Shown: positions 18,082 through 63,705, counted from the first letter of the stretch. The stretch is DNA of 64,000 bases from an uncultured bacterium (GCA_963825585.1 CAWGTX010000006.1:963905-1027904), one strand, 5' to 3'. The notes: generated by a model from the letters alone, not told the origin. Numbers and translations are program-made.

Positions 18082-18169
18082 TCACCAGCACCACGGCCAC
18101 CAACCCGCGCTCTGGGGACGAAATCGACCGTCTGACGGTCGTTTCTGTCCCCAGTTGGGAGGAGAGGGC

Positions 18170-30900: not shown

Positions 30901-32427
30901 TCAGCCGACTCCACCTTCCGCGGTTCTCCTGCCGATGAAGTCGTGGAGCTCTGCGGCAGTGGCGTCGTCGAGCGGTGGCGGTTCGAAGTCGGCCAGGACC
31001 TGCTTGTAGACCCGGTGGGCGCGCTGGTCGGCCGTGAGACCGCCCGCTAGCTGCCAGTTCTCGAAGTTCTGCCAGTCCGACACGATGGGCGCGTAGAAGG
31101 CGGTTTCGTAGCGCTCGAGGGTGTGTGCCGACCCGAAGAAATGGCCGCCCGGCCCGACGTCGCCGATGGCGTCGACCGCCAGTTCCGCGGTGTCGATCTT
31201 GAGCGGCTGCATGACCTCGGCCATCATCTGGAGGAGTTCCACATCGATGACGAACTTCTCGAAGCTGGCCACCAGCCCGCCTTCCATCCACCCTGCACCA
31301 TGCATGACCAGGTTGGCGTGGCCCATGACCGCTCCCCACAGCGACATCTCGGACTCGTAGGCGGCCTGGGCATCGACTGCGTTGGAGGCGTTGGCATTCG
31401 ACGAGCGGTACGGGATCCCGTACCGCCGCGCCAGCTGGCCACCTGCCAGGGCCGCCCTCGTGTACTCGGGGGTACCGAACGCCGGGGCGCCCGATCTCAT
31501 GTCGACATTGGATGTGAATCCGCCGTAGACCACCGGAGCGCCCGGGTTGACCATCTGGGTGAACGCCAGACCGGCCAGAGCTTCGGCATTCTGCTGGGCC
31601 AGGGCCCCGGCGATGGAGGCGGGCGCCATCGCTCCTGACAGCGTGAACGGTGTGATCACCACAACCTGGTTCATGCGGGCCATCTCGATGAGCCCTTCGA
31701 TCATGGGCCCGTCGAGACGCAGCGGCGACGACGTGTTGATGATGGTGAAGAGGGACGGCTCGGCCGATAGCTGCTCTCTGGTGATTCCGCGCCCGATCCT
31801 CACGATCTCGAGCGCGTCGATGATCCGCCCTCGTCCCAGCGAGTAGGCGTGGAACACCTTGTCGGTGAGCGTGATGAACGAACCGAGCCCCGCCAGATGC
31901 CTGGTGGCGGGTGGGAGGTCGATTGGTTCCACCGGATACCCGCCAAACAGGTGGACGATGTTGAACGCCTGTCCGAGCCGCAGGAAGTCCTGGAAGTGGG
32001 CGAAGGTGCCGGGTCGGCGGCCGCCATCGAGCGACGACGAGTTCGGGGCGCTCGCCACCGAACAGAAATTGACGTTCGTGCCTCCGACGGCGAGATTGTG
32101 AGCAGGGTTGCGGGCGTGCATCGTGAACCCGGCGGGAGCCTTGGAGACGAGGTCGAGGACCAACTCACGATCGAATCGGACCCGCTCGGTTCCCGCCTCG
32201 ACGTCGGCGCCGTTGGCGGCGAGGATCTCCAGCGCCTCCGGATGGAGGAAGTCCATGCCGATCCGCTCCAGAATCTGGAGCGAGGCGTCGTGGATGGCCT
32301 CGATCTGGTCGTCCGCGAGAACGTCCATCGGCCGGAAGGGATTGGTCAGATTCCGCCACGGCAGCTGATGGAGACCGGCGCCCCGGCTGGCCCGTCGACC
32401 GGCCCGGGTGGAGCTTTCACGTGGCAT
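30901..32427 (-). CDS. Trimethylamine methyltransferase (MttB) family, non-pyrrolysine type (quaternary-amine:corrinoid methyltransferase-like)
   Basis: Full-length MttB fold with no in-frame amber. No corrinoid protein or MtxA partner in the window. Confidence 0.9.
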   Translation of the reverse strand: MPRESSTRAGRRASRGAGLHQLPWRNLTNPFRPMDVLADDQIEAIHDASLQILERIGMDFLHPEALEILAANGADVEAGTERVRFDRELVLDLVSKAPAGFTMHARNPAHNLAVGGTNVNFCSVASAPNSSSLDGGRRPGTFAHFQDFLRLGQAFNIVHLFGGYPVEPIDLPPATRHLAGLGSFITLTDKVFHAYSLGRGRIIDALEIVRIGRGITREQLSAEPSLFTIINTSSPLRLDGPMIEGLIEMARMNQVVVITPFTLSGAMAPASIAGALAQQNAEALAGLAFTQMVNPGAPVVYGGFTSNVDMRSGAPAFGTPEYTRAALAGGQLARRYGIPYRSSNANASNAVDAQAAYESEMSLWGAVMGHANLVMHGAGWMEGGLVASFEKFVIDVELLQMMAEVMQPLKIDTAELAVDAIGDVGPGGHFFGSAHTLERYETAFYAPIVSDWQNFENWQLAGGLTADQRAHRVYKQVLADFEPPPLDDATAAELHDFIGRRTAEGGVG

Positions 32428-32630: not shown

Positions 32631-33044
32631 ATGCACACTTCGTCTCGGGCACGCCTGGCAATCGCCGTCTTGGCCATCGGGCTCGCAGCGTGTCAAGGTG
32701 CCTCCAACGGTGACATCGCGATCTGGAACATCGAGTCGGCCGAGTCGATCACGCCCGAAGCGACGTCGTTCACCGCCCTCGTCGAGCGACTGGGGTGCGC
32801 CAACGGCGAGACGGGTCGCGTGCTCGATCCCGTCATCAACGCCGGTGAGGACGAGATCGTCATCACGTTCTCCGTCGAAGCACTCCCCGCCGGCGACTAC
32901 AACTGTCCGGGTAACGACCGTGTTTCCTATCTCATCGAGCTGGAAGAGCCGGTCGGCCAACGCAGAATCGTCGACGGTGCTTGCCGGCACGGCGACGCCG
33001 CGGAAACCTCACACTGCACCACCGAGGTCCGCTGGGAACGGTGA
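32631..33044 (+). CDS. Hypothetical lipoprotein
   Basis: Signal peptide with lipobox LAAC. Confidence 0.5.
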   Translation: MHTSSRARLAIAVLAIGLAACQGASNGDIAIWNIESAESITPEATSFTALVERLGCANGETGRVLDPVINAGEDEIVITFSVEALPAGDYNCPGNDRVSYLIELEEPVGQRRIVDGACRHGDAAETSHCTTEVRWER

Positions 33045-33047: not shown

Positions 33048-33830
33048 TCAGCGACCCGTCCACACCGGCGGTCGCTTCTCGGTGAACGACCGAGGCCCTT
33101 CCTGGGCGTCATCCGACGTCAGCATCCGTTCGTAGAGTTCCATCTCACCCGTGCGCATGGCGGCGTAGCCGTCGACGATCGACATACCGTCGGTCGCCTC
33201 GATCAGCTCGAGGATGGCCCCGACCGCCAGTGGGGCTGACGCCACCACCTCCTCGGCGAGCTCACGGGCTGCGTCCATCAGTTCGGCGGCGGGGACCACC
33301 CGGTTGACGATCCCGTACCGCATCGCCTCCTCCGCCGACAGCCGCCGTCCAGCGAAGAGGACCTCGTTGGCGAGTTGCCGCGGCAGGATCTTCGGGAGCC
33401 GGATGGTGCCGGCGTCGGGGATGATGCCGATACGGGTCTCGGGGAGGAAGAACTGGGCGTGATCGGCGGCGACCACGAGGTGTGCCGCCATCGTCATCTC
33501 GAATCCGCCGCCGACGGCCATGCCATTCACGGCGAGGATCACGGGTTTGGTGAGACCGGGTAGCTCGGGGAACCCTCCGAACCCGCCGGCGCCGTAGTCG
33601 GACTCGAACTCCTCGCCCCCGGCGGCGGCGTTGAGGTCCCAACCGGCGGTGAAGAAGCGATCCCCCGCCCCGGTCAGGATCGCCACCCGGTAGGCCGGGT
33701 CGTCGCGGAACTCCTCGAACAGCGCCGACATGCGCCGTGAGGTGACGGCGTCGATGGCGTTGGCCTTGCCACGGGCGATGGTGATGACCATCACCGGTGC
33801 GTTGCGTTCGACGATCAGATCCTCGTCCAT
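33048..33830 (-). CDS. Enoyl-CoA hydratase/isomerase (crotonase), CaiD-like
   Basis: Start MDEDLIVERNAPVMVITIARGKANAID; crotonase body. GGAGG SD. The track ORF over-extends. Confidence 0.9.
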   Translation of the reverse strand: MDEDLIVERNAPVMVITIARGKANAIDAVTSRRMSALFEEFRDDPAYRVAILTGAGDRFFTAGWDLNAAAGGEEFESDYGAGGFGGFPELPGLTKPVILAVNGMAVGGGFEMTMAAHLVVAADHAQFFLPETRIGIIPDAGTIRLPKILPRQLANEVLFAGRRLSAEEAMRYGIVNRVVPAAELMDAARELAEEVVASAPLAVGAILELIEATDGMSIVDGYAAMRTGEMELYERMLTSDDAQEGPRSFTEKRPPVWTGR

Positions 33831-33843
33831 CGGAGCCTCCTGT

Positions 33844-35856
33844 TCACTGTTCCGACACGCCGAGGGCGTCGACCGCCACGGCGCCGTGCTGCATGACGAG
33901 CAGCGGGTTGACCTCGAACTCGACGAATCCCTCCCCGACCACCAACGAGGCGATGCGGACGATGGCGTCGACCGCCGCCTCGACGTCGCCACCCGGTCGG
34001 GAGCGATGCCCAGCAAGGAGCGGCCACACCCGCAGCTCCTGCAGTGCGGCCTGCACGTCGTCGTGGCCGACGGGGGCGAGCAGCGTGACTGCGTCGGCGA
34101 GCAGCTCCACCAGGACCCCGCCAGAACCGACGGTGACCGTCCATCCCACTGGCGGCTCCCGCCTGACGCCCACGACCAACTCGGCGACGGCGCCGGCGAC
34201 GAACGACTCCACCATGAACTCCGAACCGAGGGCCGCCATCGACTCTGCCGCCCGGGCGAGGTCGTCGGGACCGCCGATGCCCACGACAACGCCCCCGGCC
34301 TCGGTCTTGTGCTCCAAACCGATCGCCTTCAGCACCACCGGGTATCCGATCGCCTGGGCGGCGGCGGCGAGCCCGGAGCGCGAGACGATACGGGCCCGCG
34401 GCACGACCACACCGGCCTCCGCCAGGAACGCCTTCGCCTGGTGCTCGCCGAGCGTTGCCGGCCGACCGACCTCCTCAGGGCACGGCGCGGGCACGCTCGG
34501 TGCGGCGGGGGCAGGCCGTGCCGCCGCCTCCAACGAGTGGAGGGCGTCGTCGATACCGGGGATGGCGGGGATCGACCTGTCGGCGAGCCAGGTGGCCACA
34601 CGGGCGGGGAGGTTCTCGGGCAGCGTCGCCGTGACCACGGCCGGGGTGCCACTTCTGATGCGGGCGGCCACGAACGCCTCGAGGGTCGGCCACCACCAGG
34701 TGTCGTCTGCGCCCGGGACCGGGAAGTCGATGACCAGGATCCCGGCATCCACACCGCCCGACAACGTCTCGGTGAAGCACGCCGTCATCTTGGCGAGGTC
34801 GCCCCAGATGAACGTGTGGTAGTCGAGCGGGTTGGTGATCGGCACCCGGTTGTCGAGCGTGTCGGCGATGCGAGATGCAGCGGCGGCATCGAACGCCGGG
34901 AAGGCAACGTCGAGGCCGGCAGCGCGGTCGGCGATCAGCCCCGCCTCGCCGCCCGAGCACGACAGCGACGTGAGCCGGTTGCCTCCGAGGCGCCCGTGGG
35001 TGCCGAGCACCGCCAGCGCCCCCAGCAGCACCGGCAGCGAATCCACCTGCACCACCCCCACCCGATCGAACAGCGCCTGGTAGGCGGCCGCCGATCCGGC
35101 GAGCGAGGCGGTGTGGGTACGGGCGATGGCGGCGCCGGCGTCGGTGAGCCCGGTCTTCAGCGCCACGATCGGCTTGCCCAGCCCATGCGCCCGAACCGCC
35201 GCCTCGGCGAACCGGCCCGGGTCCGACAGTGCCTCGAGGTGGAGACCGATGGCGGTGATGCGCTCGTCGGCCACCAGCGCCTCCACGCAGTCCTCGATGC
35301 CGATCCCGGCCTGGTTGCCGAGGGTGATCACCTGGGCCAGGGGAAGGCCGCGCTGCTGCATGGTGATGTTGATGGCGAGGTTGCCGGACTGGGTCACGAT
35401 CGCCACCCCCCGCTCGATGCGACGACAACCCTGGACGTCGGGCCACAGCACCGCACCGGACAGGGCGTTGACGTAACCGTGGCAGTTGGGGCCGATCATC
35501 GGCATGTCGCCGGCGGCCTCCACCAGGCGGACCTGCAGATCCACACCCTCGGCGCCCGACTCGGCGTAGCCGGAGGCGTAACACACCACCCCGCCGCAGC
35601 CGAGCTCACGCAGCGCAGCGACCACCTCGATCGAGCGGACCCGGTCGACCGCCACGAAGGCGGCATCGGGTGCTGTCGGCAGGTCGGCCACGGCGGGGAA
35701 CGTGGCCACGCCCGCCAGGTCGGGGCGGGTCGGATTGACGGCGAATACCGTACCTTCGTACCTGAGCAGCCGCGACTGCTCGATGGCGAAGGCGGCCCGC
35801 TCGCCGCCGATGAAGGCGATCGAGGCCGGGTCGAGCAGGCGGGTGAGGTCAGCCAC
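33844..35856 (-). CDS. NDP-forming acyl-CoA synthetase (CoA-binding + succinyl-CoA-synthetase-like + ATP-grasp, fused alpha/beta)
   Basis: N-terminal LLDPASIAFIGG CoA-binding motif; ATP-grasp C-terminus. GTG start overlaps the ACAD stop by 8 nt. Confidence 0.85.
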   Translation of the reverse strand: MADLTRLLDPASIAFIGGERAAFAIEQSRLLRYEGTVFAVNPTRPDLAGVATFPAVADLPTAPDAAFVAVDRVRSIEVVAALRELGCGGVVCYASGYAESGAEGVDLQVRLVEAAGDMPMIGPNCHGYVNALSGAVLWPDVQGCRRIERGVAIVTQSGNLAINITMQQRGLPLAQVITLGNQAGIGIEDCVEALVADERITAIGLHLEALSDPGRFAEAAVRAHGLGKPIVALKTGLTDAGAAIARTHTASLAGSAAAYQALFDRVGVVQVDSLPVLLGALAVLGTHGRLGGNRLTSLSCSGGEAGLIADRAAGLDVAFPAFDAAAASRIADTLDNRVPITNPLDYHTFIWGDLAKMTACFTETLSGGVDAGILVIDFPVPGADDTWWWPTLEAFVAARIRSGTPAVVTATLPENLPARVATWLADRSIPAIPGIDDALHSLEAAARPAPAAPSVPAPCPEEVGRPATLGEHQAKAFLAEAGVVVPRARIVSRSGLAAAAQAIGYPVVLKAIGLEHKTEAGGVVVGIGGPDDLARAAESMAALGSEFMVESFVAGAVAELVVGVRREPPVGWTVTVGSGGVLVELLADAVTLLAPVGHDDVQAALQELRVWPLLAGHRSRPGGDVEAAVDAIVRIASLVVGEGFVEFEVNPLLVMQHGAVAVDALGVSEQ

Positions 35857-37009
35857 CGTGTTCGCGCAGCATCGCCCGGCTGATGATGTGGCGTTGGATC
35901 TCCGAGGTGCCGTCCCAGATCCGCTCGACCCTGGAATCACGCCAGAACCGTTCGAGCGGGAGCTCGTCCATCAAACCCATGCCACCAAGGATCTGGATGG
36001 CCTCGTCGGTGACGAAGGCGAGCATCTCGGTGGACACCAGCTTGGCCATGGCGGCGTCACTGTCGGTCATGGTCCCCTGGTCGGCCTTCCACGCCGCCCG
36101 GTAGGTGAGCAACTCGGCGGCTGCGAGCTGGGCGGCCATGTCGGCGAGCTTGAACGAGACGCCCTGGAACTTGCCGATCTGCTGGCCGAATTGGCGGCGG
36201 TTGGCGGCCCACTCTGTGGCGATGGAGATGGCCCGGTCGGCCCGGCCGAGCGAGGTGGCCGCCACCTGCAGGCGGGTGGCGCCGAGCCAGGTGTTGGCGA
36301 CGTCGAAGCCGCGGTGCTCCTCGCCGAGGATCTGGCTCACCGGGACCCGGCATCCGTCGAAGGTGAGGATCGAGTTGTGATAGCCGCGGTGGCTCACCGA
36401 GTTGTACCCCTTCTGCACCTCGAAGCCGGGGGTTCCAATGTCGACGAGGAAACTGGTGATCAGCTTGCGCGGGCCCCGCGGGGTGTCCTCCTCCCCACTG
36501 GCGGCGAACAGGATCACGTAGTCGGCCAGATCGGCGTGGCTGATGAAGTGTTTGGTCCCGGTGATCACGTACTCATCGCCGTCCCGCACCGCCCGGCACT
36601 TCATCCCGCGCACGTCGGACCCGGCATCGGGCTCGGACATCGCCAGGCATTCGACCCGCTCGCCGCGGATGGTCGGCAGCAGGTAGCTGTCGATCTGGTC
36701 GCCGACGCAGGCCCGCAGGATGTTCGATGGCCGGGCCACCACGTACTGCAGCCCGTACGACGTCTTGCCGAACTCCCGCTCGATGAGGGCGATCGTCAGG
36801 TTGTCGAGCCCTCCCCCACCCAGCTCCTCGGGCATGTTGGCGGCGTAGATCCCCGCCTCGAGCGATTTCCGCTTGATCTGCTCGACCAGCTCGGGCCGGA
36901 CGTCCCCGGTCTTCTCGACCTCGTCCTCGTACGGCATCAGTTCCTTCTCCACGAAGGCCCTGACCACGTCCACGATCATCTTCTGTTCGTCAGTGATCGA
37001 GAAGTTCAT
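35849..37009 (-). CDS. Acyl-CoA dehydrogenase
   Basis: ACAD N/M/C domain signatures. Start MNFSITDEQKM with GAGG SD. Confidence 0.9.
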   Translation of the reverse strand: MNFSITDEQKMIVDVVRAFVEKELMPYEDEVEKTGDVRPELVEQIKRKSLEAGIYAANMPEELGGGGLDNLTIALIEREFGKTSYGLQYVVARPSNILRACVGDQIDSYLLPTIRGERVECLAMSEPDAGSDVRGMKCRAVRDGDEYVITGTKHFISHADLADYVILFAASGEEDTPRGPRKLITSFLVDIGTPGFEVQKGYNSVSHRGYHNSILTFDGCRVPVSQILGEEHRGFDVANTWLGATRLQVAATSLGRADRAISIATEWAANRRQFGQQIGKFQGVSFKLADMAAQLAAAELLTYRAAWKADQGTMTDSDAAMAKLVSTEMLAFVTDEAIQILGGMGLMDELPLERFWRDSRVERIWDGTSEIQRHIISRAMLREHGG

Positions 37010-37016
37010 TCCGTAC

Positions 37017-37075
37017 CTCTTGTCCCCCACGAAGTGGGGGAAGGGGCCCCCACGAAGTGGGGTAGGGGGGTGGAG
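37017..37075. repeat. Solo copy of the GC-rich hairpin element seen at 6112..6336
   Basis: tgtcccccacgaagtgggggaaggggcccccacgaagtggggtaggggggtgg; two cccccac-gaa-gtggggg hairpins. Confidence 0.8.
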
Positions 37076-37091
37076 AACCCGTCCGAAAGCG

Positions 37092-38558
37092 TCATACGCG
37101 AGAAACCTCCATCACGGCCTTCGCCGGCCGCTCCATCTGGGAATGGACCTTCCAGATCTCGTCGAGGACCGCCTTCGGTCCGTCCAGCGTGTTCGCCGAC
37201 CGTCCCGCCTCCATGTCGACGTGCACCAGCACCTGCTCGTTGGTGCAGAGCAGATCGCCGGTGTCGCCGTGGTACATGGCGTGGAAGATGTGGAGCCGCT
37301 TGTGGTCGTGGCCGAGCAGCTGGGTGGTGAACCGCAGCGGCTCACCGGTCGAGCACTCCTTGGTGTAGACGAGATGGCTCTCGACGGTGTAGAACGAGTG
37401 CTTGGCGGCCCGGTAGTCCTCGTCGATACCGATGTACCGGAAGAAGGCGTCCGACGCCCATCCGAACGCCAGCAGGTACGCCGACTCGGTCATGTGGTCG
37501 TTGTAGTCCACCCAGTCGGGCGCCACCCGGCACTGGTAGAGGGGCAGCGGCGTGTCGATCGCCATCCCCGGCGTCCAGCGGGTGGGTGCGGCCCGGTCGA
37601 CGGTGCGGCCTTCGCGCCGGGCGATGATCGCCCCCGCCCCGAGCTTGGACTCACGAAGCGAGTACATCACCGAGATCAGGGAGTCGTCACGCAGCCGCTC
37701 CAGCTCGGCGATCGAGCGTCCCGCCGCCTGTGCCTGGGTGCCCTCGACCATTCGGTCGATGAGGGTGTCGGTGAGCGGGGGCGCCACCAGCTTGGTCCAC
37801 GGCCACTCGAGGGCCGGTCCGAACTGTTCGAGCATGTGCCGCATCCCCGCCTCGCCGCCGGCCAGGTGGTAGATCAGGTTGGTCCCCATCGCCGCCCAGC
37901 GGATGCCGGGGCCGTACACGATCGAGTCGTCGAGCTCACCGGTGGTGGCGACGTTCTCGGAGATCATGTGGAGGATCTCCCGCCACAAGGCCTCCTGCAG
38001 CCGGTCGGCCAGGAAGCCGTCCACCTCGGTGCGGACGTGGAGGGCGTACATGTCGAGGTCGTCGTACACGATGAGCGCCCGCTCGACGACGTCCGGCGAT
38101 GTCTTCGCACCGCCGAGCACTTCCACCAGCGGCAGTAGATAGACGGGGTTGAACGGGTGTCCCACCACCATCCGCTCCGGATGGCGCATCCCGTCCTGCA
38201 GCTCGCTGGGCAACAGCCCTGAGGTGGACGATCCGATGATCACCTCGGGCCCGGCGGTGGCGTCGATGGCCCGCAGCACCCGTTGTTTCAACCCGACGTT
38301 CTCGGGCGCCGACTCCTGCACGAAGTCGGCCTGCTCACCCACCTCCTCGGGCGAAGCGACGAACGTGACCCGGCCGGGATCGGCACCCGGATACAGCCCG
38401 ATCTTGCGAACCGACGGCCAGGCACGCTCGATCGAGGCGTGGAGCCGGTCCTCCGCTCCGGGGGCCGGGTCGCTGGCGACCACGTCCCAGCCTCGCGAGA
38501 GGGCGCGGACCGCCCAGCCGGCGCCGATCACGCCGGTCCCCACCACGCCGAATCGCAT
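37092..38558 (-). CDS. lcdH: L-carnitine dehydrogenase-like (3-hydroxyacyl-CoA-dehydrogenase NAD domain fused to C-terminal hotdog thioesterase-like domain)
   Basis: MRFGVVGTGVIGAGWA Rossmann start; 3HCDH body; C-terminal about 150-aa 4HBT-like region. Confidence 0.7.
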   Translation of the reverse strand: MRFGVVGTGVIGAGWAVRALSRGWDVVASDPAPGAEDRLHASIERAWPSVRKIGLYPGADPGRVTFVASPEEVGEQADFVQESAPENVGLKQRVLRAIDATAGPEVIIGSSTSGLLPSELQDGMRHPERMVVGHPFNPVYLLPLVEVLGGAKTSPDVVERALIVYDDLDMYALHVRTEVDGFLADRLQEALWREILHMISENVATTGELDDSIVYGPGIRWAAMGTNLIYHLAGGEAGMRHMLEQFGPALEWPWTKLVAPPLTDTLIDRMVEGTQAQAAGRSIAELERLRDDSLISVMYSLRESKLGAGAIIARREGRTVDRAAPTRWTPGMAIDTPLPLYQCRVAPDWVDYNDHMTESAYLLAFGWASDAFFRYIGIDEDYRAAKHSFYTVESHLVYTKECSTGEPLRFTTQLLGHDHKRLHIFHAMYHGDTGDLLCTNEQVLVHVDMEAGRSANTLDGPKAVLDEIWKVHSQMERPAKAVMEVSRV

Positions 38559-39496
38559 CAGAAGTTGACCTGGTCGATGCCCTTGAGACCGAGGACCTCA
38601 CGGGTCTCGTCGGCGGTCATCGGCTCACGCGAGAGCTCGTCGAGGATGCGGACGATCTTCTCGACCTGGTCGGCGTTCGACTCGGCCAGCTTGCCCTTGC
38701 GCAGGTAGATCGAGTCCTCCAGACCCACCCGAACGTTGCCGCCCAGGGTGGCGCCGGCCGTGATCAGGTCGAACTGGGCGCGACCGCCACCGAGGATGCC
38801 CCATTCGGCATCGTTGCCGAACAGCCGGGTGGCGGCCTCCTTCATGTGGAACACGTTCTCGACATCGGCGCCGATCCCACCGAGGGTGCCGATCACGAAC
38901 TGCATGAAGATGGGTGTCGGCACCAGCCCCTGATCGGCGAAGAACGCCAGCGTGTAGAGGTGGCCGATGTCGTAGGCCTCGAACTCGAAACGGCAGCCCG
39001 TCTCGGCGGCCAACACGGTGAGCATGTATTCGATGTCGGAGAACCGGCTGACGAACGGCTCGTCCTTGGTGGAGGCGAGGTAGGGCTCCTCCCAGTCGTA
39101 CTTCCAGCGACCCTCGTACCTGGGGATCATCTGGAACAGGCCGTAGTTCATGGTGCCCAGGTTGCAGGTGGCGAGCTCGGGCTTGAGATCCCGCACCACC
39201 TGGAGCCGTTCCTCCACGCTCTGGCCGGTGGCGCCACCGGTGGTGATCGAGATCACCGCGTCGGAGCGTTCCTTGATGCCGGCGCAGTACTCCCTGAAGA
39301 CTCCCGGGTCCGACACGGGCCGCCCATCCCGGGGGTCACGGGCGTGGAGGTGGATGACACCGGCACCCGCTTCGGCAGCGGCCACGGACTGTTCGACGTG
39401 ATCCTCGATGGTCATCGGGATGTCGTTGTTCATGGTGGGCGTGTGCGCCGATCCCGTCACCGCACACGTCACGATCACCTTGCCGGCCGGCCGCAT
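38558..39496 (-). CDS. BKACE-family (3-keto-5-aminohexanoate cleavage enzyme, DUF849) protein; candidate 3-dehydrocarnitine cleavage enzyme
   Basis: Start MRPAGKVIVTCAVTGS...HLHARD... TIM-barrel BKACE signatures. Stop overlaps the lcdH start (TGATG). Confidence 0.85.
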   Translation of the reverse strand: MRPAGKVIVTCAVTGSAHTPTMNNDIPMTIEDHVEQSVAAAEAGAGVIHLHARDPRDGRPVSDPGVFREYCAGIKERSDAVISITTGGATGQSVEERLQVVRDLKPELATCNLGTMNYGLFQMIPRYEGRWKYDWEEPYLASTKDEPFVSRFSDIEYMLTVLAAETGCRFEFEAYDIGHLYTLAFFADQGLVPTPIFMQFVIGTLGGIGADVENVFHMKEAATRLFGNDAEWGILGGGRAQFDLITAGATLGGNVRVGLEDSIYLRKGKLAESNADQVEKIVRILDELSREPMTADETREVLGLKGIDQVNF

Positions 39497-39532
39497 GATG
39501 TCTCCCTCGCCCGAGCTACATGTCCCGACAGT

Positions 39533-39551
39533 CGTTCCGCGATTCGGAACG
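39533..39551. promoter_or_regulatory. Palindromic candidate operator (7-N5-7) in the divergent IclR / BKACE-lcdH promoter region
   Basis: cgttccg-cgatt-cggaacg. Confidence 0.5.
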
Positions 39552-39596
39552 TTCTGTATAGTGGACCACGATATCGCACGGGGAGACGGCGCGTCA

Positions 39597-40343
39597 ATGG
39601 CCGACAACGTTCAATCGGTGCTCCGAGCCTTCGACATCCTCCGGGTCCTGGCCGCTCACTCCGAGGTCCAGCTCCGCCACCTGGCCGCTGAGACCGGGCT
39701 ACCCAAATCGACCCTGTCCCGACTGCTGGCCACGATGGAGTCGATCGGGATGGTGGCTCGTGGTGTTTCGGAAGGCAGCTACACCTCGGGACCGGGGCTC
39801 CCCGCCATCACCGGTTCGGCCCAGCGCCCATCGCAGTTGCTCGGGGTGGCCCACGCCTACCTGGCAGAGCTGACGGACCGCTACGGCGAGGATTCAGCCC
39901 TCGCCGTCGCCGACGGCGAGGCGGTCATCTACACCGTGCAGGTGCGGAGCGACAACCCAATCCAGGTCCCCAACTGGACCCGCCAACGGTTCCGGCCGCA
40001 CACCGTCGCCGCCGGGTTCGTGCTGATGGCGTGGTGGCCGGCGGAGCGCCTCGACGCCTACCTCGAGACACCACTCGACGCCCCCACTCCGAAGACGATG
40101 ACCGCTCCAAGCGCCATCCGGCGCCGCTCGGCCGACATCCGCCGTCGCGGTTACGGCTGGGCCTTCGACGAGTGGCTCGAGGGCATCAGCGCCGTCGCAG
40201 CCCCCGTTCTCGACGGCTCCGACAACCTGGTGGCGATGGTCAGCACCTTCGGTCCCAGCTACCGCTTCCCGGGCGACCGCGACCCCGACCAGATCGGCCG
40301 AGACCTGGCCGAGACCGGACGGTTGCTGTCACGACACCTCTGA
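39597..40343 (+). CDS. IclR-family transcriptional regulator
   Basis: N-terminal wHTH (VLRAFDILRVLAAHSEVQLRHLAAETGLPKSTLSRLL) plus IclR effector domain. GGGAGA SD. Confidence 0.85.
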   Translation: MADNVQSVLRAFDILRVLAAHSEVQLRHLAAETGLPKSTLSRLLATMESIGMVARGVSEGSYTSGPGLPAITGSAQRPSQLLGVAHAYLAELTDRYGEDSALAVADGEAVIYTVQVRSDNPIQVPNWTRQRFRPHTVAAGFVLMAWWPAERLDAYLETPLDAPTPKTMTAPSAIRRRSADIRRRGYGWAFDEWLEGISAVAAPVLDGSDNLVAMVSTFGPSYRFPGDRDPDQIGRDLAETGRLLSRHL

Positions 40344-40694: not shown

Positions 40695-42065
40695 TCAGGG
40701 GAGGTAGACCTCTTCGACAGCCACGATCTCTCCACCCTGCACCGTGACCCAGTAGGGCAACGCTCCGGCGCCGTACCACTCGAAATCGATGACACTGCTG
40801 TCGCCCTCGATCAGCAGCAACCACTGGGCGAGCGTCACCGGCTCGAGGCCGATTCCGGCTTGGAGGACGTTGCCCTGGATGCGGATGTCGGGGTCGTCCG
40901 CCAACGGAATCGGGGTCGTGTCCTCGGTGGTGTTGCGGATGAAGAAGTCGTTGGGCGGGGGTGACTCCTCCCCCGCCGCTTCGGCTGCGGCGGCGGCGTC
41001 CTCCCCGGTGAGGAAATCGGCTTCGTCGAACTCGATGGAGCCGGCACCGGCCGACCGGACCCATCCGAAGAACCGACCGTCGATGATCTGCTCGACGCCT
41101 GGACCCGTGTAGGCACGCGTCGAGCGGTCGAAGCTGAATCGCACGCCGACCGGGCCGACGAACGCCGTCCCGGAGGTGAGATCGAGCAGGAACGACTGGT
41201 CGCCGACCATGCCCGCCACCCACTCGCCGTCGGTGTCGAGGCGGGTGATGGGCCCTTCCACCGGGAGCGGGATGGCCGCCGCCGGTCCCTGACTGCCTAC
41301 CGGCAACGTGTAGACGTCGCTGTCGTCGGCGTCGGTGGAGAAGACCAGGGTCGAACCGTCGGGGGTGAGGACCACCGATAGGGGAGCCCCGTCGGTGAGC
41401 AGGTCGAGGGTGGAGGTCGATCCGTCGGATCCGACCTCGGTGACGAGCGACTCACCGCCGGCACCGCGCACCACCACCATTCTGCCCGACCCGTAGGACG
41501 CTCCGGTCACCTCGCCGGAACCCTGGTAGAGCAGCGTCGCCGAGCCGGTGGCGAGATCGACGGCCTGCACCCGGCCCCCGTCGAAGGTGATGGCCACAGG
41601 GAAGGCGCCGGCGACGGCCACGTCGGCGAGTTCCCCCAGGCCCGAGGCCGCCACCCCGTCGCCGAGCACCACGGTTCCGGCTGCCCCGTGCACCAGCCCG
41701 GCGGGGGTCACAACCGCCAGGGGCGGTTCGTCGAATGGCCCGTCGGCGTAGGTCGTCAATGGGCCGGCCACCCACACGCCGTCGGTGCGCTGCCACGTGC
41801 GGAACCCCGTCCCCACCGAGGCGGTGACCGCCGGGGCGTCGACGAGCGATTCGAGGAAGTCACCGGTCGGGTCGACGAGCGTGGTGGTGGTCGTCTCCGG
41901 CTCGCTGGAAGCAGTCGTCGAAGCGACTGACGTCGTGGCCGTCGTGTCGGCCGGGATCGTCTCGACGACGGGCGGGATGGCATCACCGGTGGGAGTCACG
42001 GGGGTGCACGCAACGAGCACGACCGAGATGACGATCGCAATCGTCTTTGGAGCGCGCGGTCTCAT
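40695..42065 (-). CDS. Secreted lipoprotein, Thr-rich linker plus probable beta-propeller-like domain (hypothetical)
   Basis: Start MRPRAPKTIAIVISVVLVACTP (lipobox). Start codon uncertain; the ORF is open to 42149. Confidence 0.55.
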   Translation of the reverse strand: MRPRAPKTIAIVISVVLVACTPVTPTGDAIPPVVETIPADTTATTSVASTTASSEPETTTTTLVDPTGDFLESLVDAPAVTASVGTGFRTWQRTDGVWVAGPLTTYADGPFDEPPLAVVTPAGLVHGAAGTVVLGDGVAASGLGELADVAVAGAFPVAITFDGGRVQAVDLATGSATLLYQGSGEVTGASYGSGRMVVVRGAGGESLVTEVGSDGSTSTLDLLTDGAPLSVVLTPDGSTLVFSTDADDSDVYTLPVGSQGPAAAIPLPVEGPITRLDTDGEWVAGMVGDQSFLLDLTSGTAFVGPVGVRFSFDRSTRAYTGPGVEQIIDGRFFGWVRSAGAGSIEFDEADFLTGEDAAAAAEAAGEESPPPNDFFIRNTTEDTTPIPLADDPDIRIQGNVLQAGIGLEPVTLAQWLLLIEGDSSVIDFEWYGAGALPYWVTVQGGEIVAVEEVYLP

Positions 42066-42120: not shown

Positions 42121-42810
42121 ATGTCCATGGAGCGGCTCCGTATGGTCACCTATCTGGGCTCCAACACCCTCCCCATCGCCGGCGAGCTCGCCGCCACGCT
42201 CGGGATGGACCTGATCTCGACCGATGTGCTCGAACCCATCGAACGGGGCGCAGGCGACCTCTACTGGATGTGCGGTCTGCTCACGGTCGAGTTGCTCGAC
42301 TCCGGACGTCTCGACGCCGAGATCGTGGCCGCACCCGTGTTCCGCGGACAGAGCGGCCCGGTGTACCACTCCGTGGTCATCGCCACCTCGCCCGCCGCCG
42401 ACGTCACCGACCTCCCCGGGCGACGCCTCGTGATCAACGAGGTGGGGTCGTGGTCGGGCAACCATGCCCTTCGGGTCCATCTGGCGGACTCTCCGATCTC
42501 GTTCGGCTCGGTCCTCGAATCGGGCGCACACACCCGTTCGATCGACATGCTCCTGGCCGGTGAGGCCGAAGTCGCCGCCATCGATCACACCATCTGGGAG
42601 CATCGCCTGGCGACGGACCCGGCTGTGCACTCGCTGGTCGTGGTCGACCGCACCCGGGACTGGCCCGCTCCCCCGTTCAGCATGAGCCGACGACTCGCTG
42701 ACACCGATGCGCTGCGCCGCGCCCTCACCGCCGCGGCACCCGCCGGCCTGGACCGCATCGTGGAGGCGACCTCGACCGACTACGACCCCATTCGGGTTGC
42801 CATGCGCTGA
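42121..42810 (+). CDS. PhnD/SsuA-like periplasmic-binding-protein-fold domain protein without signal peptide
   Basis: LRMVTYLGSNTLPIAGELAATLGMDLIST... resembles phosphonate/ABC substrate-binding fold. No N-terminal signal. Confidence 0.5.
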   Translation: MSMERLRMVTYLGSNTLPIAGELAATLGMDLISTDVLEPIERGAGDLYWMCGLLTVELLDSGRLDAEIVAAPVFRGQSGPVYHSVVIATSPAADVTDLPGRRLVINEVGSWSGNHALRVHLADSPISFGSVLESGAHTRSIDMLLAGEAEVAAIDHTIWEHRLATDPAVHSLVVVDRTRDWPAPPFSMSRRLADTDALRRALTAAAPAGLDRIVEATSTDYDPIRVAMR

Positions 42811-42854: not shown

Positions 42855-45323
42855 TTACGCCTTCATCCGCCCCATCTTGGGATCGAACAGGGGGTCGGGC
42901 GCCACCGTCGCACCGATCCGCCGACCGAAGTACTCGATCTCGAGACGGGTGCCCTCGGTGGCGAGCCGGGCGGGCAGGTAGCCGTAGACGATGTACCCAC
43001 CGACCGAGTAGCCGTAGTTGCCGCTGGTGACGTACCCGACACAGTCCTCGCCCTCGAGGATGGGCTCGTACCCGAAAGCAGCCCCACCCTCGTCGAGCAC
43101 GAGACAGGAAAGCGTGCGCTCGGGTGGCGTGGCCGCCAACCGTTCGGAGGCCTCCCTGCCCACGAAGGCGGGCTTGTCGAGCCGGACCGTCCATCCGAGG
43201 CCGGCCTCGTAGGCGGTGTACTCGGTGTGGACGTCGCTCCCCCATCCCCGGTATCCCTTTTCGAGTCGGAGCGAGTCGAACGCCCCCATCCCGGCGGGGA
43301 TGATGCCGTGTCCGGAGCCGGCCGCCCACAGGGCGTCCCACACCGTGAGGGCGGCGTCGACCGGCATGTGCAATTCCCAGCCGAGCTCGCCGGCATAGGA
43401 GACACGCAGCGCCAGCACGCGGGCCATGCCGACGTCGATCCAGCGGGCGGCGAAATAGGGGAACGCCTCGTTGCTGACGTCGGCGGAGGTGACCTGGGAG
43501 AGCACCTCCCGGGCGTTCGGGCCCCACAGGCCGACCGCCGACCAGGCGTCGGAGATGTCGGTGATGGCGACGTCGGTGAAGCCGCCCTCATCCGCGACCA
43601 CTTCCATCCACCGAAGGTCCTGTGGTCTGGTGCCCTCGCCCACGAAGAACCAGAAGGTGTCGTCGGCGAGTCGGGCCACCGCCAGGTCGCGCTTGACCCC
43701 GCCTCTGGGGGTGAGCCAGGTGGTGTAGACGAGCGTCCCCGCCTTCCGGTCGACGTTGTTCGAACACAGGTGCTGGGCGTAGGCGGCAGCGCTCGCACCC
43801 TTGGCCTCGATGATCGACAGCCCGTGCAGGTCGAACAACGCCACGTCGTCACGGGTGGCGAGATGCTCCGCCCCCTGGATGGGAGACCAGAACTCGGCCT
43901 CCCAGCCGGTGCGCTCCGGGATGCGATCGGCGCAGCGGCCGACGAGGGTGCTGTTGGACTCGAACCAGTTGGGGAGTTCGATCCCGGCGAAGGCGGTGAA
44001 CACCGCCCCGTTGTCGAGGTGACGCTGGTGGAACGGTGACAACCGCACGTTGCGGGGCGAGGTGATCGGCTGACGCGGGTGGATGATCTCGTAGACCTCG
44101 GCGTAGTTCTTGTCGCACACCGCCGCCATGTACGCCGGAGTGGCCTGGAACCCGTGGAAGCGGTGAAGGCTCACCTGGCGGGGATCCCACTCCGAGTCGC
44201 CGTCCACCATCATCTCGGCGGTCATCTTCCCGACGCCGGCCCCGTGTGTGAGCCAGGCCGCCGTCGACACCCACAGCCCCTTGGTTCGGGCCTCGCCGAT
44301 GATGGGCATGCCGTCGACAGAGAAGGCGAACATGCCGTTGAACTTGGTGGGGAACGTGGCGGGGTCGAGTCCCCGGAAGAACGGCAGCACCCGCTGGGCG
44401 GTGTCCCAGGCTTGACCGAGGAAGTCGTCAAGGGTGAAGGGGTTCATGGCGGTGGTGCCCAACGTGTGCGAGCTCACCCTGATCGGGCGATGGCGGTAGC
44501 TCCCGATCCCGTAGGCGTTCCAATGCTGTCGGTAGTACATGAAGGTGTCGAGCTCCCGCATGGTCGGGAACGTCACCTCGTGGTCCTGGTCGGTCGGGTC
44601 GAAGTGGGCGAGCTCGGGAAGAGGCGGGGAGATCAGGTACTGGTGGTCGTAGGCGTGGAGCGGGATCGGAACGCCAACCTTGTCGCCGAGCACCGGACCC
44701 CAGATGTTCGTGGAGATCACCACCTGCTCGGTCTCGATGCGCCGGTGGTCGGCATTGGCGGTGAGAACGGCGGTGACGTGGCCATCCGCCACCTCGACGT
44801 CGGTGACCTCGGTGTCGGCCAGCCAGGTGACCGTCGGCCCGCACGCCGCCTGGAGGGCGGCGTTGAGGTGGGCGGCAGCCACGAGCTGTCCCCGCTCCAT
44901 GAACAACGAACCCACCAGGGCATCGGGGTTGAGGTGCGGCATGACCTCGAGGGTCTCGTCGACGGTGAGTATCCGGGACGATGCGTGATAACTCTTCGCC
45001 TCGCCGTTCAACCGACGGAGGTCTGTGAGCCGGCGTTCGGAGATGGCCAGCTCGAGCCCACCGAAGGAATTCACGGTTCGCCGACCCGGGTCGAACTGCG
45101 GCAGCGACTGGTACAGGTCCGCCCCGTAGTGACCCATCTGGGTGAGCAGCTTCGAATGCCCCAACGCCACCACACCTCCGGGGGCATGCGAGGTCGACCC
45201 GTGGTTGTGGGCGATCGGGCCCTTGTCCACCACGACGATCCCGTCCCATCCAAGTTTCACCAGGTGGTAGGCGATCGAGGATCCGACGATCCCCGACCCC
45301 ACGATGACGACCCGAGCCTGCAT
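42855..45323 (-). CDS. Dimethylglycine/sarcosine dehydrogenase family (FAD oxidoreductase + GcvT-like folate-binding aminomethyltransferase domains)
   Basis: Start MQARVVIVGSGIVGSSIAYHL (FAD GxGxxG). C-terminal GcvT-fold (SYAGELGWELH). Confidence 0.9.
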   Translation of the reverse strand: MQARVVIVGSGIVGSSIAYHLVKLGWDGIVVVDKGPIAHNHGSTSHAPGGVVALGHSKLLTQMGHYGADLYQSLPQFDPGRRTVNSFGGLELAISERRLTDLRRLNGEAKSYHASSRILTVDETLEVMPHLNPDALVGSLFMERGQLVAAAHLNAALQAACGPTVTWLADTEVTDVEVADGHVTAVLTANADHRRIETEQVVISTNIWGPVLGDKVGVPIPLHAYDHQYLISPPLPELAHFDPTDQDHEVTFPTMRELDTFMYYRQHWNAYGIGSYRHRPIRVSSHTLGTTAMNPFTLDDFLGQAWDTAQRVLPFFRGLDPATFPTKFNGMFAFSVDGMPIIGEARTKGLWVSTAAWLTHGAGVGKMTAEMMVDGDSEWDPRQVSLHRFHGFQATPAYMAAVCDKNYAEVYEIIHPRQPITSPRNVRLSPFHQRHLDNGAVFTAFAGIELPNWFESNSTLVGRCADRIPERTGWEAEFWSPIQGAEHLATRDDVALFDLHGLSIIEAKGASAAAYAQHLCSNNVDRKAGTLVYTTWLTPRGGVKRDLAVARLADDTFWFFVGEGTRPQDLRWMEVVADEGGFTDVAITDISDAWSAVGLWGPNAREVLSQVTSADVSNEAFPYFAARWIDVGMARVLALRVSYAGELGWELHMPVDAALTVWDALWAAGSGHGIIPAGMGAFDSLRLEKGYRGWGSDVHTEYTAYEAGLGWTVRLDKPAFVGREASERLAATPPERTLSCLVLDEGGAAFGYEPILEGEDCVGYVTSGNYGYSVGGYIVYGYLPARLATEGTRLEIEYFGRRIGATVAPDPLFDPKMGRMKA

Positions 45324-45481
45324 GAAGACCTCATTTCCAATGCTCTGGACAGTTCTGTACATGCTAAAACGTGAACGACGCGAATCCACATGCCGATCCC
45401 GCCATATGTCGAGTTGGCGACGTTTCTCAAGCCCGACGAATCGATACCGATACCGAACACAGAACGGAGGTCACACGGTCC

Positions 45482-46162
45482 ATGACGGTGAAACTGCTCA
45501 GCCCCGGCCAATCGGTGAAGGGGAGGCCGTTCACATCACCCACGCTGTACGAACGGGATCTTCAGATCCTGGGCTACATGCTCGAGGATGTGCGGGGTCT
45601 GATGGGCGAACTGTACGAAGGCGCCATCTCGATCCGGCCGTACGAACCCCTCTACTGGCGCGTTCACGGACTGGGACGCCGCACCGTATTGTGCGATCCG
45701 ATGCGACTGGGGGAACGTCGGGACATCTGCGTGGTCGGGTTCTTCGGTGAGCGGCTCTTCGGACCAGATGCCACCGCCCTCGAGAAGGCCGACGCCGCCG
45801 TGGTGCTCGAGTTCCAGCACTATCCCGGCATTCTGATCTACAGCTCGATGGAGCTGTCGGACGGCAACTGGGGCAATCTGGTGCTGCACACCGCCCCGGA
45901 GGACCGAGAAGCGTGGAGGGGCGGAGACACCCATGCCAGAGCCGTGGCAGAGCTGGTCCCAATCCACTTCCGGACCGTTCGAATCCACAACGGAACATTG
46001 TCCGGCGGTCTAGCGGGCGGGAAGGCGATCCGGGTCGAGCGCACCAAGTACTGGGACTACCGGAGCCCCCGGGTGTGGCAGGCCGTGCGGGAGCTGTCAG
46101 CTCAACCGGCGGCGGGTTCGGCGACCGGCGGCGGTTCCGACAATGTCGCCACATCGAGGTGA
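45482..46162 (+). CDS. Hypothetical protein (226 aa)
   Basis: GGAGGT SD before ATG 45482. No recognisable motifs. 3' end overlaps the convergent ABC ATPase by 60 nt. Confidence 0.45.
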   Translation: MTVKLLSPGQSVKGRPFTSPTLYERDLQILGYMLEDVRGLMGELYEGAISIRPYEPLYWRVHGLGRRTVLCDPMRLGERRDICVVGFFGERLFGPDATALEKADAAVVLEFQHYPGILIYSSMELSDGNWGNLVLHTAPEDREAWRGGDTHARAVAELVPIHFRTVRIHNGTLSGGLAGGKAIRVERTKYWDYRSPRVWQAVRELSAQPAAGSATGGGSDNVATSR

Positions 46163-47130
46163 CAGCGGGACAGATGCCCCGGGGCCAACTCGATCGGCTC
46201 GGGCTCGGTGACATCACACAGCCCCATCACAACGCGGTGACACCGGGTGTGGAACACACAACCCGCCGGAGGGTTGGCCGGGCTGGGTACCTCACCGGTC
46301 AGTGGGATGCGCGTACGGACTTCGCCGTCGACGCTGGGAACGGCCGACAACAACGCCTCGGTGTAGGGATGGTTCGGACCGTCCTCGAACACCTGATTGG
46401 TGGTGCCGATCTCCATGATCCGACCGAGGTACATCACGGCGATTCGATCGGCGAGGTACCGCACGACACCCATGTCGTGGGTGATGAAGACGTAGCTGGT
46501 CCGATTCTCGTACTGGAGTGAGGCCAACAGGTTGAGGATCGCCGCCTGCACCGACACGTCGAGGGCGCTGGTGGGTTCGTCACACACCACGATCCGGGGG
46601 TCGCCGGCGAAGGCTCGAGCGATGGCCACCCGTTGTTTCAGCCCTCCCGACAGCTGACGGGGTTTCAGATCGAGATGGCGGGGCGTGAGCCTCAGGTGGG
46701 CCGCCAATGCCTCCACCTTGCGATTGGCCTCCTCGCCGGCCACTCCGGTCAGCTTCTGCATGCTCCGCAGCAGGATCCGCCGCACCGACCAACTCCGGTT
46801 GAGCGCCGAGTCGGGATTCTGGAAGACCATCTGCATCGCCCGCTTGGATTCTGTCGATCGATCGTCCGTGCCCGCGGCGAGGCCGGAGCCGTCGAGCGAC
46901 ACGAGTCCACCTTCGTCGGCTGATTCGATCCCGAGGATGGTCTTCGCCAGGGTCGACTTGCCCGACCCCGACTCACCCACGATTCCGAGAGTGTCTCCCG
47001 CCGCCAGAACCAGGTCGACGTCGACGAGTGCCGGCACGTCGTGACCCCGCTGACGGAAGGTCTTCGAAACCGAGTTCAGCTCGAGGACCTCCGGCCGGTC
47101 GGCCGATGGCGAAAGGACGCTGATCTGCAC
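46102..47130 (-). CDS. ABC transporter ATP-binding protein (OppF/DppF-like NBD). Possibly the second half of a fused two-NBD protein.
   Basis: Walker A GESGSGKST, signature LSGGLKQRV, C-terminal peptide-ABC extension. Proposed GTG start at 47130. Confidence 0.7.
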   Translation of the reverse strand: MQISVLSPSADRPEVLELNSVSKTFRQRGHDVPALVDVDLVLAAGDTLGIVGESGSGKSTLAKTILGIESADEGGLVSLDGSGLAAGTDDRSTESKRAMQMVFQNPDSALNRSWSVRRILLRSMQKLTGVAGEEANRKVEALAAHLRLTPRHLDLKPRQLSGGLKQRVAIARAFAGDPRIVVCDEPTSALDVSVQAAILNLLASLQYENRTSYVFITHDMGVVRYLADRIAVMYLGRIMEIGTTNQVFEDGPNHPYTEALLSAVPSVDGEVRTRIPLTGEVPSPANPPAGCVFHTRCHRVVMGLCDVTEPEPIELAPGHLSRCHLDVATLSEPPPVAEPAAG

Positions 47131-48164
47131 GGCGTCCAGTTCCGCCTCGATCTCGCCGATTCGGTCCGTGTGATGACACCGAGCGAATCCCCCCCGTCCT
47201 CGATCGGAACCTCGGGCGGGACCTGGGTGCGACACAACTGGTCGGCGATCGCACAGCGATCGACGTACACGCATGTCGGCAGAGCCGTCCCGATCTGGGG
47301 GAGGATTCCTGGGATCGTGGCGAGAGCCGCTCGTGTCTTGTGGGCGCCGTGGCGGGGCAGGGATCGCAGCAGACCCACCGTGTAGGGATGCTTGGGGTTG
47401 TCGAACACGTCGCCGCTCGGGCCTTCCTCGACCACTTTGCCGGCGTACATGACACCCACCCGGTCGCACAGCGAACGGATGATGCCGAGGTTGTGAGCGA
47501 TCATGACGACCGCGGCGTCGCTCTCCTGTCGGAGCACCCTCACCAGGTCGAGGACCTCGGCTTCGACGGTTGCGTCGAGACCGGTGGTGGGCTCGTCGAG
47601 CACCAGCAGCTTCGGGTTGCAGGCGAGCGCCATGGCGATGACGACACGCTGCTGCATGCCCCCCGACAACTGGAACGGGTATCTGTCCATCACCCGGGCG
47701 GGGTCGGCGATCCGGACCTTCCGGAGCGCGTCCATGGCCGAGGACCGCGCCTGATCCTTGCTTTCGCCGAGCAGCGTGAAACTCTCGATCACCTGCGTCC
47801 CGATCCGAAGGGTGGGGTTGAGCGCCTGTGCCGGATCCTGGTACACCATCGACGCCTCACGAGCGCGGAACTCCTGCAGCTCCCGGTTCGACATCGCTGT
47901 GACATCGCGCCCTCCCACGCGAACGTGCCCGCTGACGATTCGACCGTTGCGCGGCAGGTAGCGGACGGCGGCGAAGGCCGTTGTCGACTTTCCGCAGCCA
48001 GACTCCCCCACCAGACCGAACGCCTCGCCCGGGGCGACGGTGAACGAAACCCCCCGCAACACCTCGCGGTCTACTCCGCGGACCGTGTACACGACCCTCA
48101 GATCGTCGACCTCGAGCGCGGCCTGCGGCGTGGCGGCGGATCGGTCGATCATCGGGTCGGTCAT
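47076..48164 (-). CDS. ABC transporter ATP-binding protein (OppD/DppD-like NBD)
   Basis: Walker A GESGCGKST, LSGGMQQRV, CxxxxRC C-terminal motif. ATG overlaps the permease stop (ATGA). Confidence 0.8.
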   Translation of the reverse strand: MTDPMIDRSAATPQAALEVDDLRVVYTVRGVDREVLRGVSFTVAPGEAFGLVGESGCGKSTTAFAAVRYLPRNGRIVSGHVRVGGRDVTAMSNRELQEFRAREASMVYQDPAQALNPTLRIGTQVIESFTLLGESKDQARSSAMDALRKVRIADPARVMDRYPFQLSGGMQQRVVIAMALACNPKLLVLDEPTTGLDATVEAEVLDLVRVLRQESDAAVVMIAHNLGIIRSLCDRVGVMYAGKVVEEGPSGDVFDNPKHPYTVGLLRSLPRHGAHKTRAALATIPGILPQIGTALPTCVYVDRCAIADQLCRTQVPPEVPIEDGGDSLGVITRTESARSRRNWTPCRSASFRHRPTGRRSSS

Positions 48165-50049: not shown

Positions 50050-50103
50050 GGTCCGACCATGTCATACGACCTGTCGCAGGTGGCCGGAGGCCGTGCCGAC
50101 GCT

Positions 50104-63686: not shown

Positions 63687-63705
63687 GTGTACTCCTGATC
63701 GATGG

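Follow-up and report, generated by a model that had tools for sequence, protein, structure and literature searches.

A probable IclR-controlled operon converting gamma-butyrobetaine and L-carnitine into glycine betaine in an uncultured Acidimicrobiia bacterium

The closest described counterpart of the locus considered here is the bco/cdh cluster of Sinorhizobium meliloti. In work attributed to Bazire et al. in 2019, this cluster was reportedly analysed in vitro and found to take gamma-butyrobetaine to glycine betaine in seven steps with five enzymes, said to be the BcoA/B ligase, the BcoC dehydrogenase, the BcoD hydratase, a fusion of L-carnitine dehydrogenase (CDH) with a thioesterase, plus an enzyme that cleaves beta-keto acids (BKACE). 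The fusion protein reportedly acts at three points, hydrolysing carnitinyl-CoA, oxidising carnitine and hydrolysing betainyl-CoA. Here we describe a related locus at positions 33048–40343 of a 64,000-nt stretch of DNA (about 67% G+C; hereafter the window) from an uncultured Acidimicrobiia bacterium (CAWGTX010000006.1:963905-1027904). Judging from homology and gene context, we consider it likely that this is an IclR-controlled operon that converts gamma-butyrobetaine and L-carnitine aerobically into glycine betaine and is a homologue of the S. meliloti cluster. Such a system is already known, and the locus differs in the origin of its BKACE, in its regulator and in the phylum of its host.

Two other described systems are similar in part. 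In Pseudomonas the thioesterase is encoded by a separate gene, regulation is by CdhR, which is of AraC/GlxA type, and a module of ligase, acyl-CoA dehydrogenase (ACAD) and hydratase for gamma-butyrobetaine is not known there. The P. aeruginosa cdhCAB/CdhR system (with dhcAB) is like the window locus in converting carnitine with a CDH and a BKACE, which according to PMC12482172 take carnitine to betainyl-CoA and then to glycine betaine. The Escherichia coli caiTABCDE genes for anaerobic carnitine respiration share with the window a CaiD-like hydratase and CaiA-like ACAD reactions with crotonobetainyl-CoA and gamma-butyrobetainyl-CoA, but the window operon lacks the CaiB CoA-transferase, the AMP-forming ligase CaiC, the CaiT antiporter and CaiE, and it is predicted to run oxidatively, from gamma-butyrobetaine to carnitine, rather than reductively. 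Domains of CaiB (a type III CoA transferase), CaiC and CaiT were found in none of the six genes of the locus, and none were seen in the other window open reading frames (ORFs) scanned.

Pfam and NCBIfam scans identify five co-directional genes on the minus strand and one IclR gene on the plus strand, diverging across a 100-bp spacer (Table 1); a preliminary description of the window had listed the same six genes, with these domains and orientations, within 33048–40343. Long spurious ORFs are abundant in the window because of its high G+C content, and third-position G+C (GC3) sets real genes apart. GC3 is 0.84–0.90 for all six genes, values typical of real genes in a 67% G+C genome. The preliminary description spoke of overlapping stops and starts, which holds for two of the four junctions between enzyme genes: the BKACE stop and the CDH start have 1 nt in common (TGATG), and the ACAD stop overlaps the GTG start of the ligase by 8 nt (GTGGCTGA). 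At the other two there are spacers, one of 13 nt that includes AGGAGG between the ligase and the enoyl-CoA hydratase (ECH), and one of 61–82 nt between CDH and ACAD, its length varying with the ACAD start chosen (there is an alternative upstream start at 37030). The gene set, the domain architectures, their order and conservation, and the operator described below are all read directly from the sequence.

As a reference for S. meliloti we used contigs on which its ligase P0128 is encoded without any change. On these an AraC gene diverges from genes for BKACE (300 aa), a 3HCDH and 4HBT_2 fusion (496 aa), ACAD (386 aa), ligase (687 aa) and ECH (260 aa), and an SBP_bac_5 ABC transporter follows. 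All five domain architectures are identical to those in the window and lie in identical order on one strand beside a divergent regulator, and in both clusters the CDH is fused to the thioesterase and the ligase is a single polypeptide. Over their full lengths the CDH is 45%, the ACAD 65%, the ligase 44% and the ECH 46% identical. The clusters differ in that the window BKACE, at 29% identity, comes from a different subfamily, the regulator is IclR in the window and AraC/GlxA in S. meliloti, no SBP_bac_5 ABC transporter lies directly downstream in the window, where an MttB-family gene is nearby, and the window host is an Acidimicrobiia bacterium.

The 687-aa ligase of the S. meliloti cluster is very likely the enzyme called BcoAB, on the basis of the name, the gene context reported for it and the cluster itself. 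Gamma-butyrobetainyl-CoA has been made with S. meliloti BcoAB, ATP, MgCl2, CoA and gamma-butyrobetaine, according to the methods of 10.1101/2021.01.25.428109, where Bazire et al. 2019 is cited. S. meliloti shows identical architectures and order, and the five-gene arrangement is not new. The preliminary description had also implied that an ADP-forming ligase in an aerobic route is novel, a suggestion that does not hold, a ligase of this type in such a route having reportedly been published in 2019 and the cluster being very widespread.

We infer the substrates from homology and gene context, and we also infer a double role for the thioesterase domain. The NDP-forming synthetase would convert gamma-butyrobetaine to its CoA thioester, the ACAD would take gamma-butyrobetainyl-CoA to crotonobetainyl-CoA, and the CaiD-like hydratase would take crotonobetainyl-CoA to L-carnitinyl-CoA. 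Hydrolysis by the CDH-fused hotdog domain would release L-carnitine, which the CDH domain would convert to 3-dehydrocarnitine with NAD+. The BKACE would then convert 3-dehydrocarnitine and acetyl-CoA to acetoacetate and betainyl-CoA, and the same thioesterase domain would hydrolyse betainyl-CoA to glycine betaine. This is essentially the pathway of the preliminary description, whose gene identities and route agree with the family scores of the CDH and hydratase given below, with the identical architectures and order in S. meliloti and with the synthesis of gamma-butyrobetainyl-CoA by BcoAB; hydrolysis of carnitinyl-CoA to carnitine was missing from its chemistry.

The CDH half scores 435.2 bits against the L-carnitine dehydrogenase model NF005471, passing the equivalog cut-off of 414. 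The whole fusion aligns end to end (3–485 of 488) with the fused carnitine 3-dehydrogenase model NF005716 at 525.6 bits, below the cut-off of 592 (the fusion of Rhizobium leguminosarum scores 942.6 bits), and across its two domains it has 43–45% identity with the fusions of R. leguminosarum and S. meliloti. For the hydratase the best NCBIfam model is the CaiD crotonobetainyl-CoA hydratase NF002936 (334.8 bits, below the cut-off of 500). The ACAD matches CaiA NF002885 weakly (199.1 bits, below the cut-off of 540), and its best NCBIfam match is an acryloyl-CoA reductase model, under the cut-off of that model; the rhizobial cluster proteins likewise fall under the CaiD and CaiA cut-offs. Conservation is highest in ACAD, which has 65% identity with its counterparts in S. 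meliloti and R. leguminosarum and 63–94% across 80 loci. The ligase fits the NDP-forming acyl-CoA synthetase (ACD) superfamily, having CoA-binding, ligase-CoA (flavodoxin-like) and ATP-grasp domains and the conserved His, and it matches models for archaeal-type ADP-forming acetate-, 3-hydroxypropionate- and 4-hydroxybutyrate-CoA ligases far under their cut-offs. Its H248, in an HTASLAG segment, and T249 are invariant in an alignment of ligase homologues, and we take the HT(G/A)SLAG segment to be the phosphohistidine loop. Equivalog quality is thus reached by the CDH assignment only, and the other enzymes need context for theirs.

Such context is available at many loci. A ligase scan with one genome per species and an alignment of diverse homologues as the query gave at least 598 loci in Actinomycetota, Alpha- and Gammaproteobacteria, and Bacteroidota; the best 80, which we fetched, are from Acidimicrobiia, Hyphomicrobiales, Rhodobacterales, Gammaproteobacteria and Flavobacteriales. 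Synteny was counted among these 80 at loci with sufficient flanking DNA. ACAD lies directly upstream of the ligase at 74 of 74 loci, a CDH homologue is within 5 kb upstream at 64 of 68, and the hydratase is downstream at 68 of 71 (61 within 0.8 kb and 7 more within about 1.5 kb). With the order CDH-ACAD-ligase-ECH recurring across loci of several phyla, these genes have not come together by chance.

Ligase homologues number in the thousands, the closest (76–90% identity) being from uncultured Acidimicrobiia, and the ligase is also found on 185 plasmids or chromids, chiefly of Rhizobium. On the R. leguminosarum plasmid p5, a gene for a GlxA-family regulator diverges from genes with the PGAP names 'BKACE', 'carnitine 3-dehydrogenase' (496 aa), ACAD, 'acetate--CoA ligase family protein' and 'carnitinyl-CoA dehydratase', followed by an Opp-type ABC transporter, and the arrangement is the same in Sinorhizobium sp. 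K101, whose ligase shares 99% identity with proteins from S. meliloti. The public names of ligase homologues, S. meliloti included, are 'acetate--CoA ligase family protein' or 'acyl-CoA synthetase (NDP forming)'; these carry no functional information. The published function has not reached annotation. On the megaplasmid of Ruegeria pomeroyi DSS-3 (L081), genes for ACAD, the ligase, a DJ-1/PfpI protein and a 'carnitinyl-CoA dehydratase' lie beside a GlxA regulator, and CDH and BKACE are not adjacent.

The window BKACE is 28–29% identical to the BKACEs of the rhizobial and S. meliloti clusters. It scores 431.2 bits against the '3,5-dioxohexanoate:acetyl-CoA acetone transferase' model NF053538, for which the cut-off is 430, and its nearest solved structures are 3E02, 3LOT, 3E49 and 8RIO, those of the rhizobial BKACE being 3C6C and 9ZSC. 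The 3,5-dioxohexanoate-type enzymes (NF053538; 3E02, 3LOT, 3E49 and BKACE15, 8RIO) are its closest subfamily, are equal to it in length and share an insertion around residues 124–147, although on NF053538 the window enzyme falls about 100 bits below them, as do its CDH-linked relatives. In the family-wide screen of Bastard et al. 2014, as given in a table of PMC4922564, dehydrocarnitine detections numbered 52 in group G5 and 1 each in G1 and G3, and 3,5-dioxohexanoate detections numbered 0 in G5, 10 in G1 and 4 in G3. The NetSyn preprint links carnitine contexts to G5, and the rhizobial BKACE type appears to map to that group. The preliminary description had matched the CDH/BKACE pair to the known 3-dehydrocarnitine route; the match stands as reaction logic and not as orthology, the window BKACE being outside the group known to cleave dehydrocarnitine.

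We compared BKACE types at 82 loci, the 80 genome loci and two plasmid loci. The rhizobial type is beside CDH at 42, the window type is present at 11, and the other 29 have neither within reach. Every one of the 11 loci with the window type is from Acidimicrobiia, with BKACE directly upstream of CDH in each, and in a neighbour-joining tree of ACAD, ligase and CDH they form two basal groups within the Acidimicrobiia clade; the remainder of the operon is therefore orthologous with either type of BKACE. One Acidimicrobiia sub-clade (L008, L012, L017, L019, L021, L026, L027, L038, L048, L059 and L066) has CDH-ACAD-ligase-hydratase with full flanks, and at these loci a BKACE of either type was not found within about 7 kb.

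The reciprocal linkage was examined in metagenome contigs. Among relatives at least 60% identical to the window BKACE and with sufficient downstream DNA, CDH follows in all, 29 directly and 5 past a gap of 0.5–0.8 kb (at L115 the match after BKACE is to the thioesterase part only), whereas at 57% identity or less it follows in 0 of 26. The two sets are also separated on NF053538, with 421–462 bits for CDH-linked enzymes, which straddle the cut-off of 430, and 528–545 bits for unlinked ones. The window BKACE appears to belong to an offshoot of the 3,5-dioxohexanoate group that is linked to CDH. The closest plasmid-borne relative, from Azospirillum (54.5% identity), has other dehydrogenases as its neighbours and is outside any carnitine cluster. 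About 15 positions distinguish the unlinked from the linked enzymes, including (unlinked-position-linked) F70Y, N83S, M92Q, M113L, F118Y, R157Y, H166T, C174A, I204T, R231E and K272E, and of these C174A adjoins the Glu that is catalytic in the FEFE(A/C)YD motif (cf. E171 in BKACE15). Basic residues are fewer in the CDH-linked enzymes, and acidic residues and tyrosines are more numerous, a trend that we hypothesize would be expected for accommodating a trimethylammonium group. Two acidic gains, D25 and D243, seen in a comparison with four PDB sequences, were not confirmed by the larger comparison of linked and unlinked enzymes and were set aside.

The regulator also differs, with IclR in the window and its relatives and AraC/GlxA at rhizobial and many proteobacterial loci. 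IclR homologues hold the equivalent position in related Acidimicrobiia loci and in metagenome contigs. In the divergent spacer there is a candidate operator consisting of a perfect palindrome, GTTCCGCGATTCGGAAC, and an abutting degenerate second site. In the window alone the palindrome is not significant, 29 of 100 shuffles having matched it, but it recurs, at most one mismatch away, in the spacer between regulator and operon at five other loci (L001, L002, L005, L011 and L023) whose IclR proteins are only 33–93% identical to that of the window, and this conservation makes it a credible operator. Two adjoining operator-like sites, GTTCCGTATCGTGGAAT and GTTCCGCATGACGGTAT, with two mismatches each, are located at 13379–13413, about 100 nt upstream of the gene for formate-tetrahydrofolate (THF) ligase, and in L001 there is a one-mismatch site (12901) between the hydratase and MttB genes. 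The presence of these sites hints at a shared regulon.

Beyond the operon, the window reads as an island of methylated-amine and one-carbon (C1) metabolism (Table 1), in which there are also transporters of the betaine type. The MttB homologue has MtgB (2QNE, 9YCE) and S. meliloti 4YYC as its closest structures, and it is probably associated with the operon; in L001 an MttB gene (from about 13011 onward) directly follows the hydratase. The residues of the MtgB glycine-betaine motif are given in PMC13080624, and in a pairwise alignment with MtgB the carboxylate-binding R312 and H348 are kept and the cation-pi residues Y97 and F356 are replaced by Ala and Gly, so that the homologue may not be a canonical glycine-betaine enzyme. 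Aerobic bacteria demethylate glycine betaine with the MttB-family MtgB and corrinoid partners, according to PMC12478193; no corrinoid-binding protein was seen in the window ORFs scanned. Glycine betaine made by the operon is probably demethylated by neighbouring genes, with C1 units entering the folate pool and being oxidised there. The SBP_bac_5 protein of the window is 24% identical to its rhizobial-cluster counterpart, which is uninformative.

Table 1. Coordinates of the operon, its spacer features and neighbouring genes, counted from the first nucleotide of the window
Feature	Position	Strand	Details
CaiD-like enoyl-CoA hydratase, ECH (BcoD-like)	33048-33830	-	260 aa; ECH_1 E=2e-61
NDP-forming (ACD-type) acyl-CoA synthetase, fused alpha/beta (BcoA/B-like)	33844-35856	-	670 aa; CoA_binding_2, Succ_CoA_lig, ATP-grasp_5
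Acyl-CoA dehydrogenase, ACAD (BcoC-like)	35849-37009	-	386 aa; Acyl-CoA_dh_N/M/1
L-carnitine dehydrogenase (CDH) fused to hotdog thioesterase	37092-38558	-	488 aa; 3HCDH_N, 3HCDH, 4HBT_2
BKACE, Zn-dependent beta-keto acid cleavage enzyme	38558-39496	-	312 aa; PF05853 E=1e-96
Candidate IclR operator: perfect palindrome GTTCCGCGATTCGGAAC (39534-39550) and abutting degenerate second site	39534-39567	.	100-bp divergent spacer; GTTCCG-N5-CGGAAC
IclR-family transcriptional regulator, divergent	39597-40343	+	248 aa; HTH_IclR, IclR_C
Two identical 15-nt hairpin-forming repeats CCCCACTTCGTGGGG, UUCG-type loop	37025-37039 and 37048-37062	-	CDH-ACAD spacer
Formate-THF ligase	13506-15269		
Formate-dehydrogenase-like subunits	16453-20853		
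MttB-superfamily non-pyrrolysine methyltransferase, quaternary amine, substrate uncertain	30901-32427	-	PF06253 E=9e-199; uninterrupted gene
Dimethylglycine-oxidase-like gene	42855-45389		
Opp-type ABC transporter	46102-51837		
SoxA-like gene	55703-58222		
SoxB-like gene	58583-59791		
OpuAC-type binding protein	62673-63947		

We propose that in the CDH-linked clade a BKACE may have been recruited a second time, independently, to quaternary-ammonium chemistry. Its origin would be the '3,5-dioxohexanoate' group, with neutral substrates, and not the known dehydrocarnitine group, and its pocket would have been remodelled by loss of Arg, Lys and His and gain of Glu and Tyr. In addition, IclR may govern a small regulon joining gamma-butyrobetaine and carnitine breakdown to an MttB-family methyltransferase and formate-THF ligase. 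The case for this combined proposal seems to us evenly balanced. The BKACE might instead retain a neutral, 3,5-dioxohexanoate-type activity outside carnitine breakdown, dehydrocarnitine being handled elsewhere or decarboxylating spontaneously. That its NF053538 score just exceeds the cut-off, and that it is about 55–60% identical to structures of that group (an estimate from HMMER alignments), would agree with such an activity, but the overlap of its stop with the CDH start, the CDH linkage of all relatives at 60% identity or more against none of the 26 at 57% or less, and the lower NF053538 scores of linked enzymes make it distinctly unlikely. Another reading is that the operon acts on a different quaternary-ammonium substrate. 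The same logic could serve delta-valerobetaine or another omega-trimethylammonio acid, with BKACE cleaving the corresponding beta-keto acid, and this is consistent with a BKACE subfamily different from that of the known dehydrocarnitine enzymes, with the clade-specific residues near conserved motifs and with the adjacent MttB homologue lacking two aromatic residues of the glycine-betaine motif. However, the CDH passes the L-carnitine dehydrogenase cut-off, and ACAD, CDH, ligase and ECH are orthologous, with much the same identity, whichever of the two BKACE types a locus carries, which argues for one shared substrate; we regard another substrate as unlikely.

Generic short-chain fatty-acid beta-oxidation with no trimethylammonium specificity was also considered and rejected as very improbable. 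Each domain family does occur in ordinary fatty-acid metabolism, and the best NCBIfam match of the ACAD, below its cut-off, is to acryloyl-CoA reductase, but the operon has no thiolase, its dehydrogenase is of the carnitine type and is fused to a thioesterase that would be futile in beta-oxidation, its synteny with rhizobial carnitine clusters is strict, and its genomic context is methylated-amine metabolism. Assignment of the operon to gamma-butyrobetaine and carnitine breakdown has several points against it nevertheless. The CaiD, CaiA and fused-CDH equivalog models are all below cut-off, the BKACE and the G5 enzymes known to cleave dehydrocarnitine are not orthologues (dehydrocarnitine was detected once in its group against 52 times in G5), and there is no transporter inside the operon. 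The enzymes of this lineage are assigned by homology, and the assignment of pathway steps draws partly on the work attributed to Bazire et al. and on indirect citations.

With the pathway known, the main value of the locus is in annotation and ecology. Databases may label the window BKACE as a 3,5-dioxohexanoate enzyme, and curated models are liable to misname the CDH-linked clade as a whole. Because of the database labels of ligase and BKACE, metagenomic surveys will overlook or wrongly name a widespread route by which gamma-butyrobetaine and carnitine become glycine betaine, a route that this locus extends to uncultured Acidimicrobiia of marine, sediment and sponge sources. The BKACE swap amounts to a natural experiment in a shift of substrate specificity within one family and yields candidate specificity residues, and the CDH-linked clade is one point that specialists might pursue.

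Several minor features of the region remain to be described. An Rfam search of the whole window gave zero RNA families. The two CCCCACTTCGTGGGG repeats in the CDH-ACAD spacer have a third copy, with one mismatch, at 6313–6327, 31 kb away; three matches in the window are above chance, 0 of 100 shuffles having equalled that number, and the spacer hairpins fold no better than shuffled sequence (z = -0.72). Two predicted lipoproteins with lipobox-like N-termini (LAAC and LVAC), neither of them matched in Pfam or NCBIfam, are encoded on either side of the operon at 32631–33044 (plus strand) and 40695–42065 (minus strand), and a PhnD-like 'Phosphonate-bd' protein of about 229 aa with no obvious signal peptide is encoded at 42121–42810 (plus strand), between the lipoprotein and dimethylglycine-oxidase-like genes. 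The larger lipoprotein gene (40695–42065) adjoins the IclR gene in L001 and L002 as well, with 77% and 56% identity respectively.

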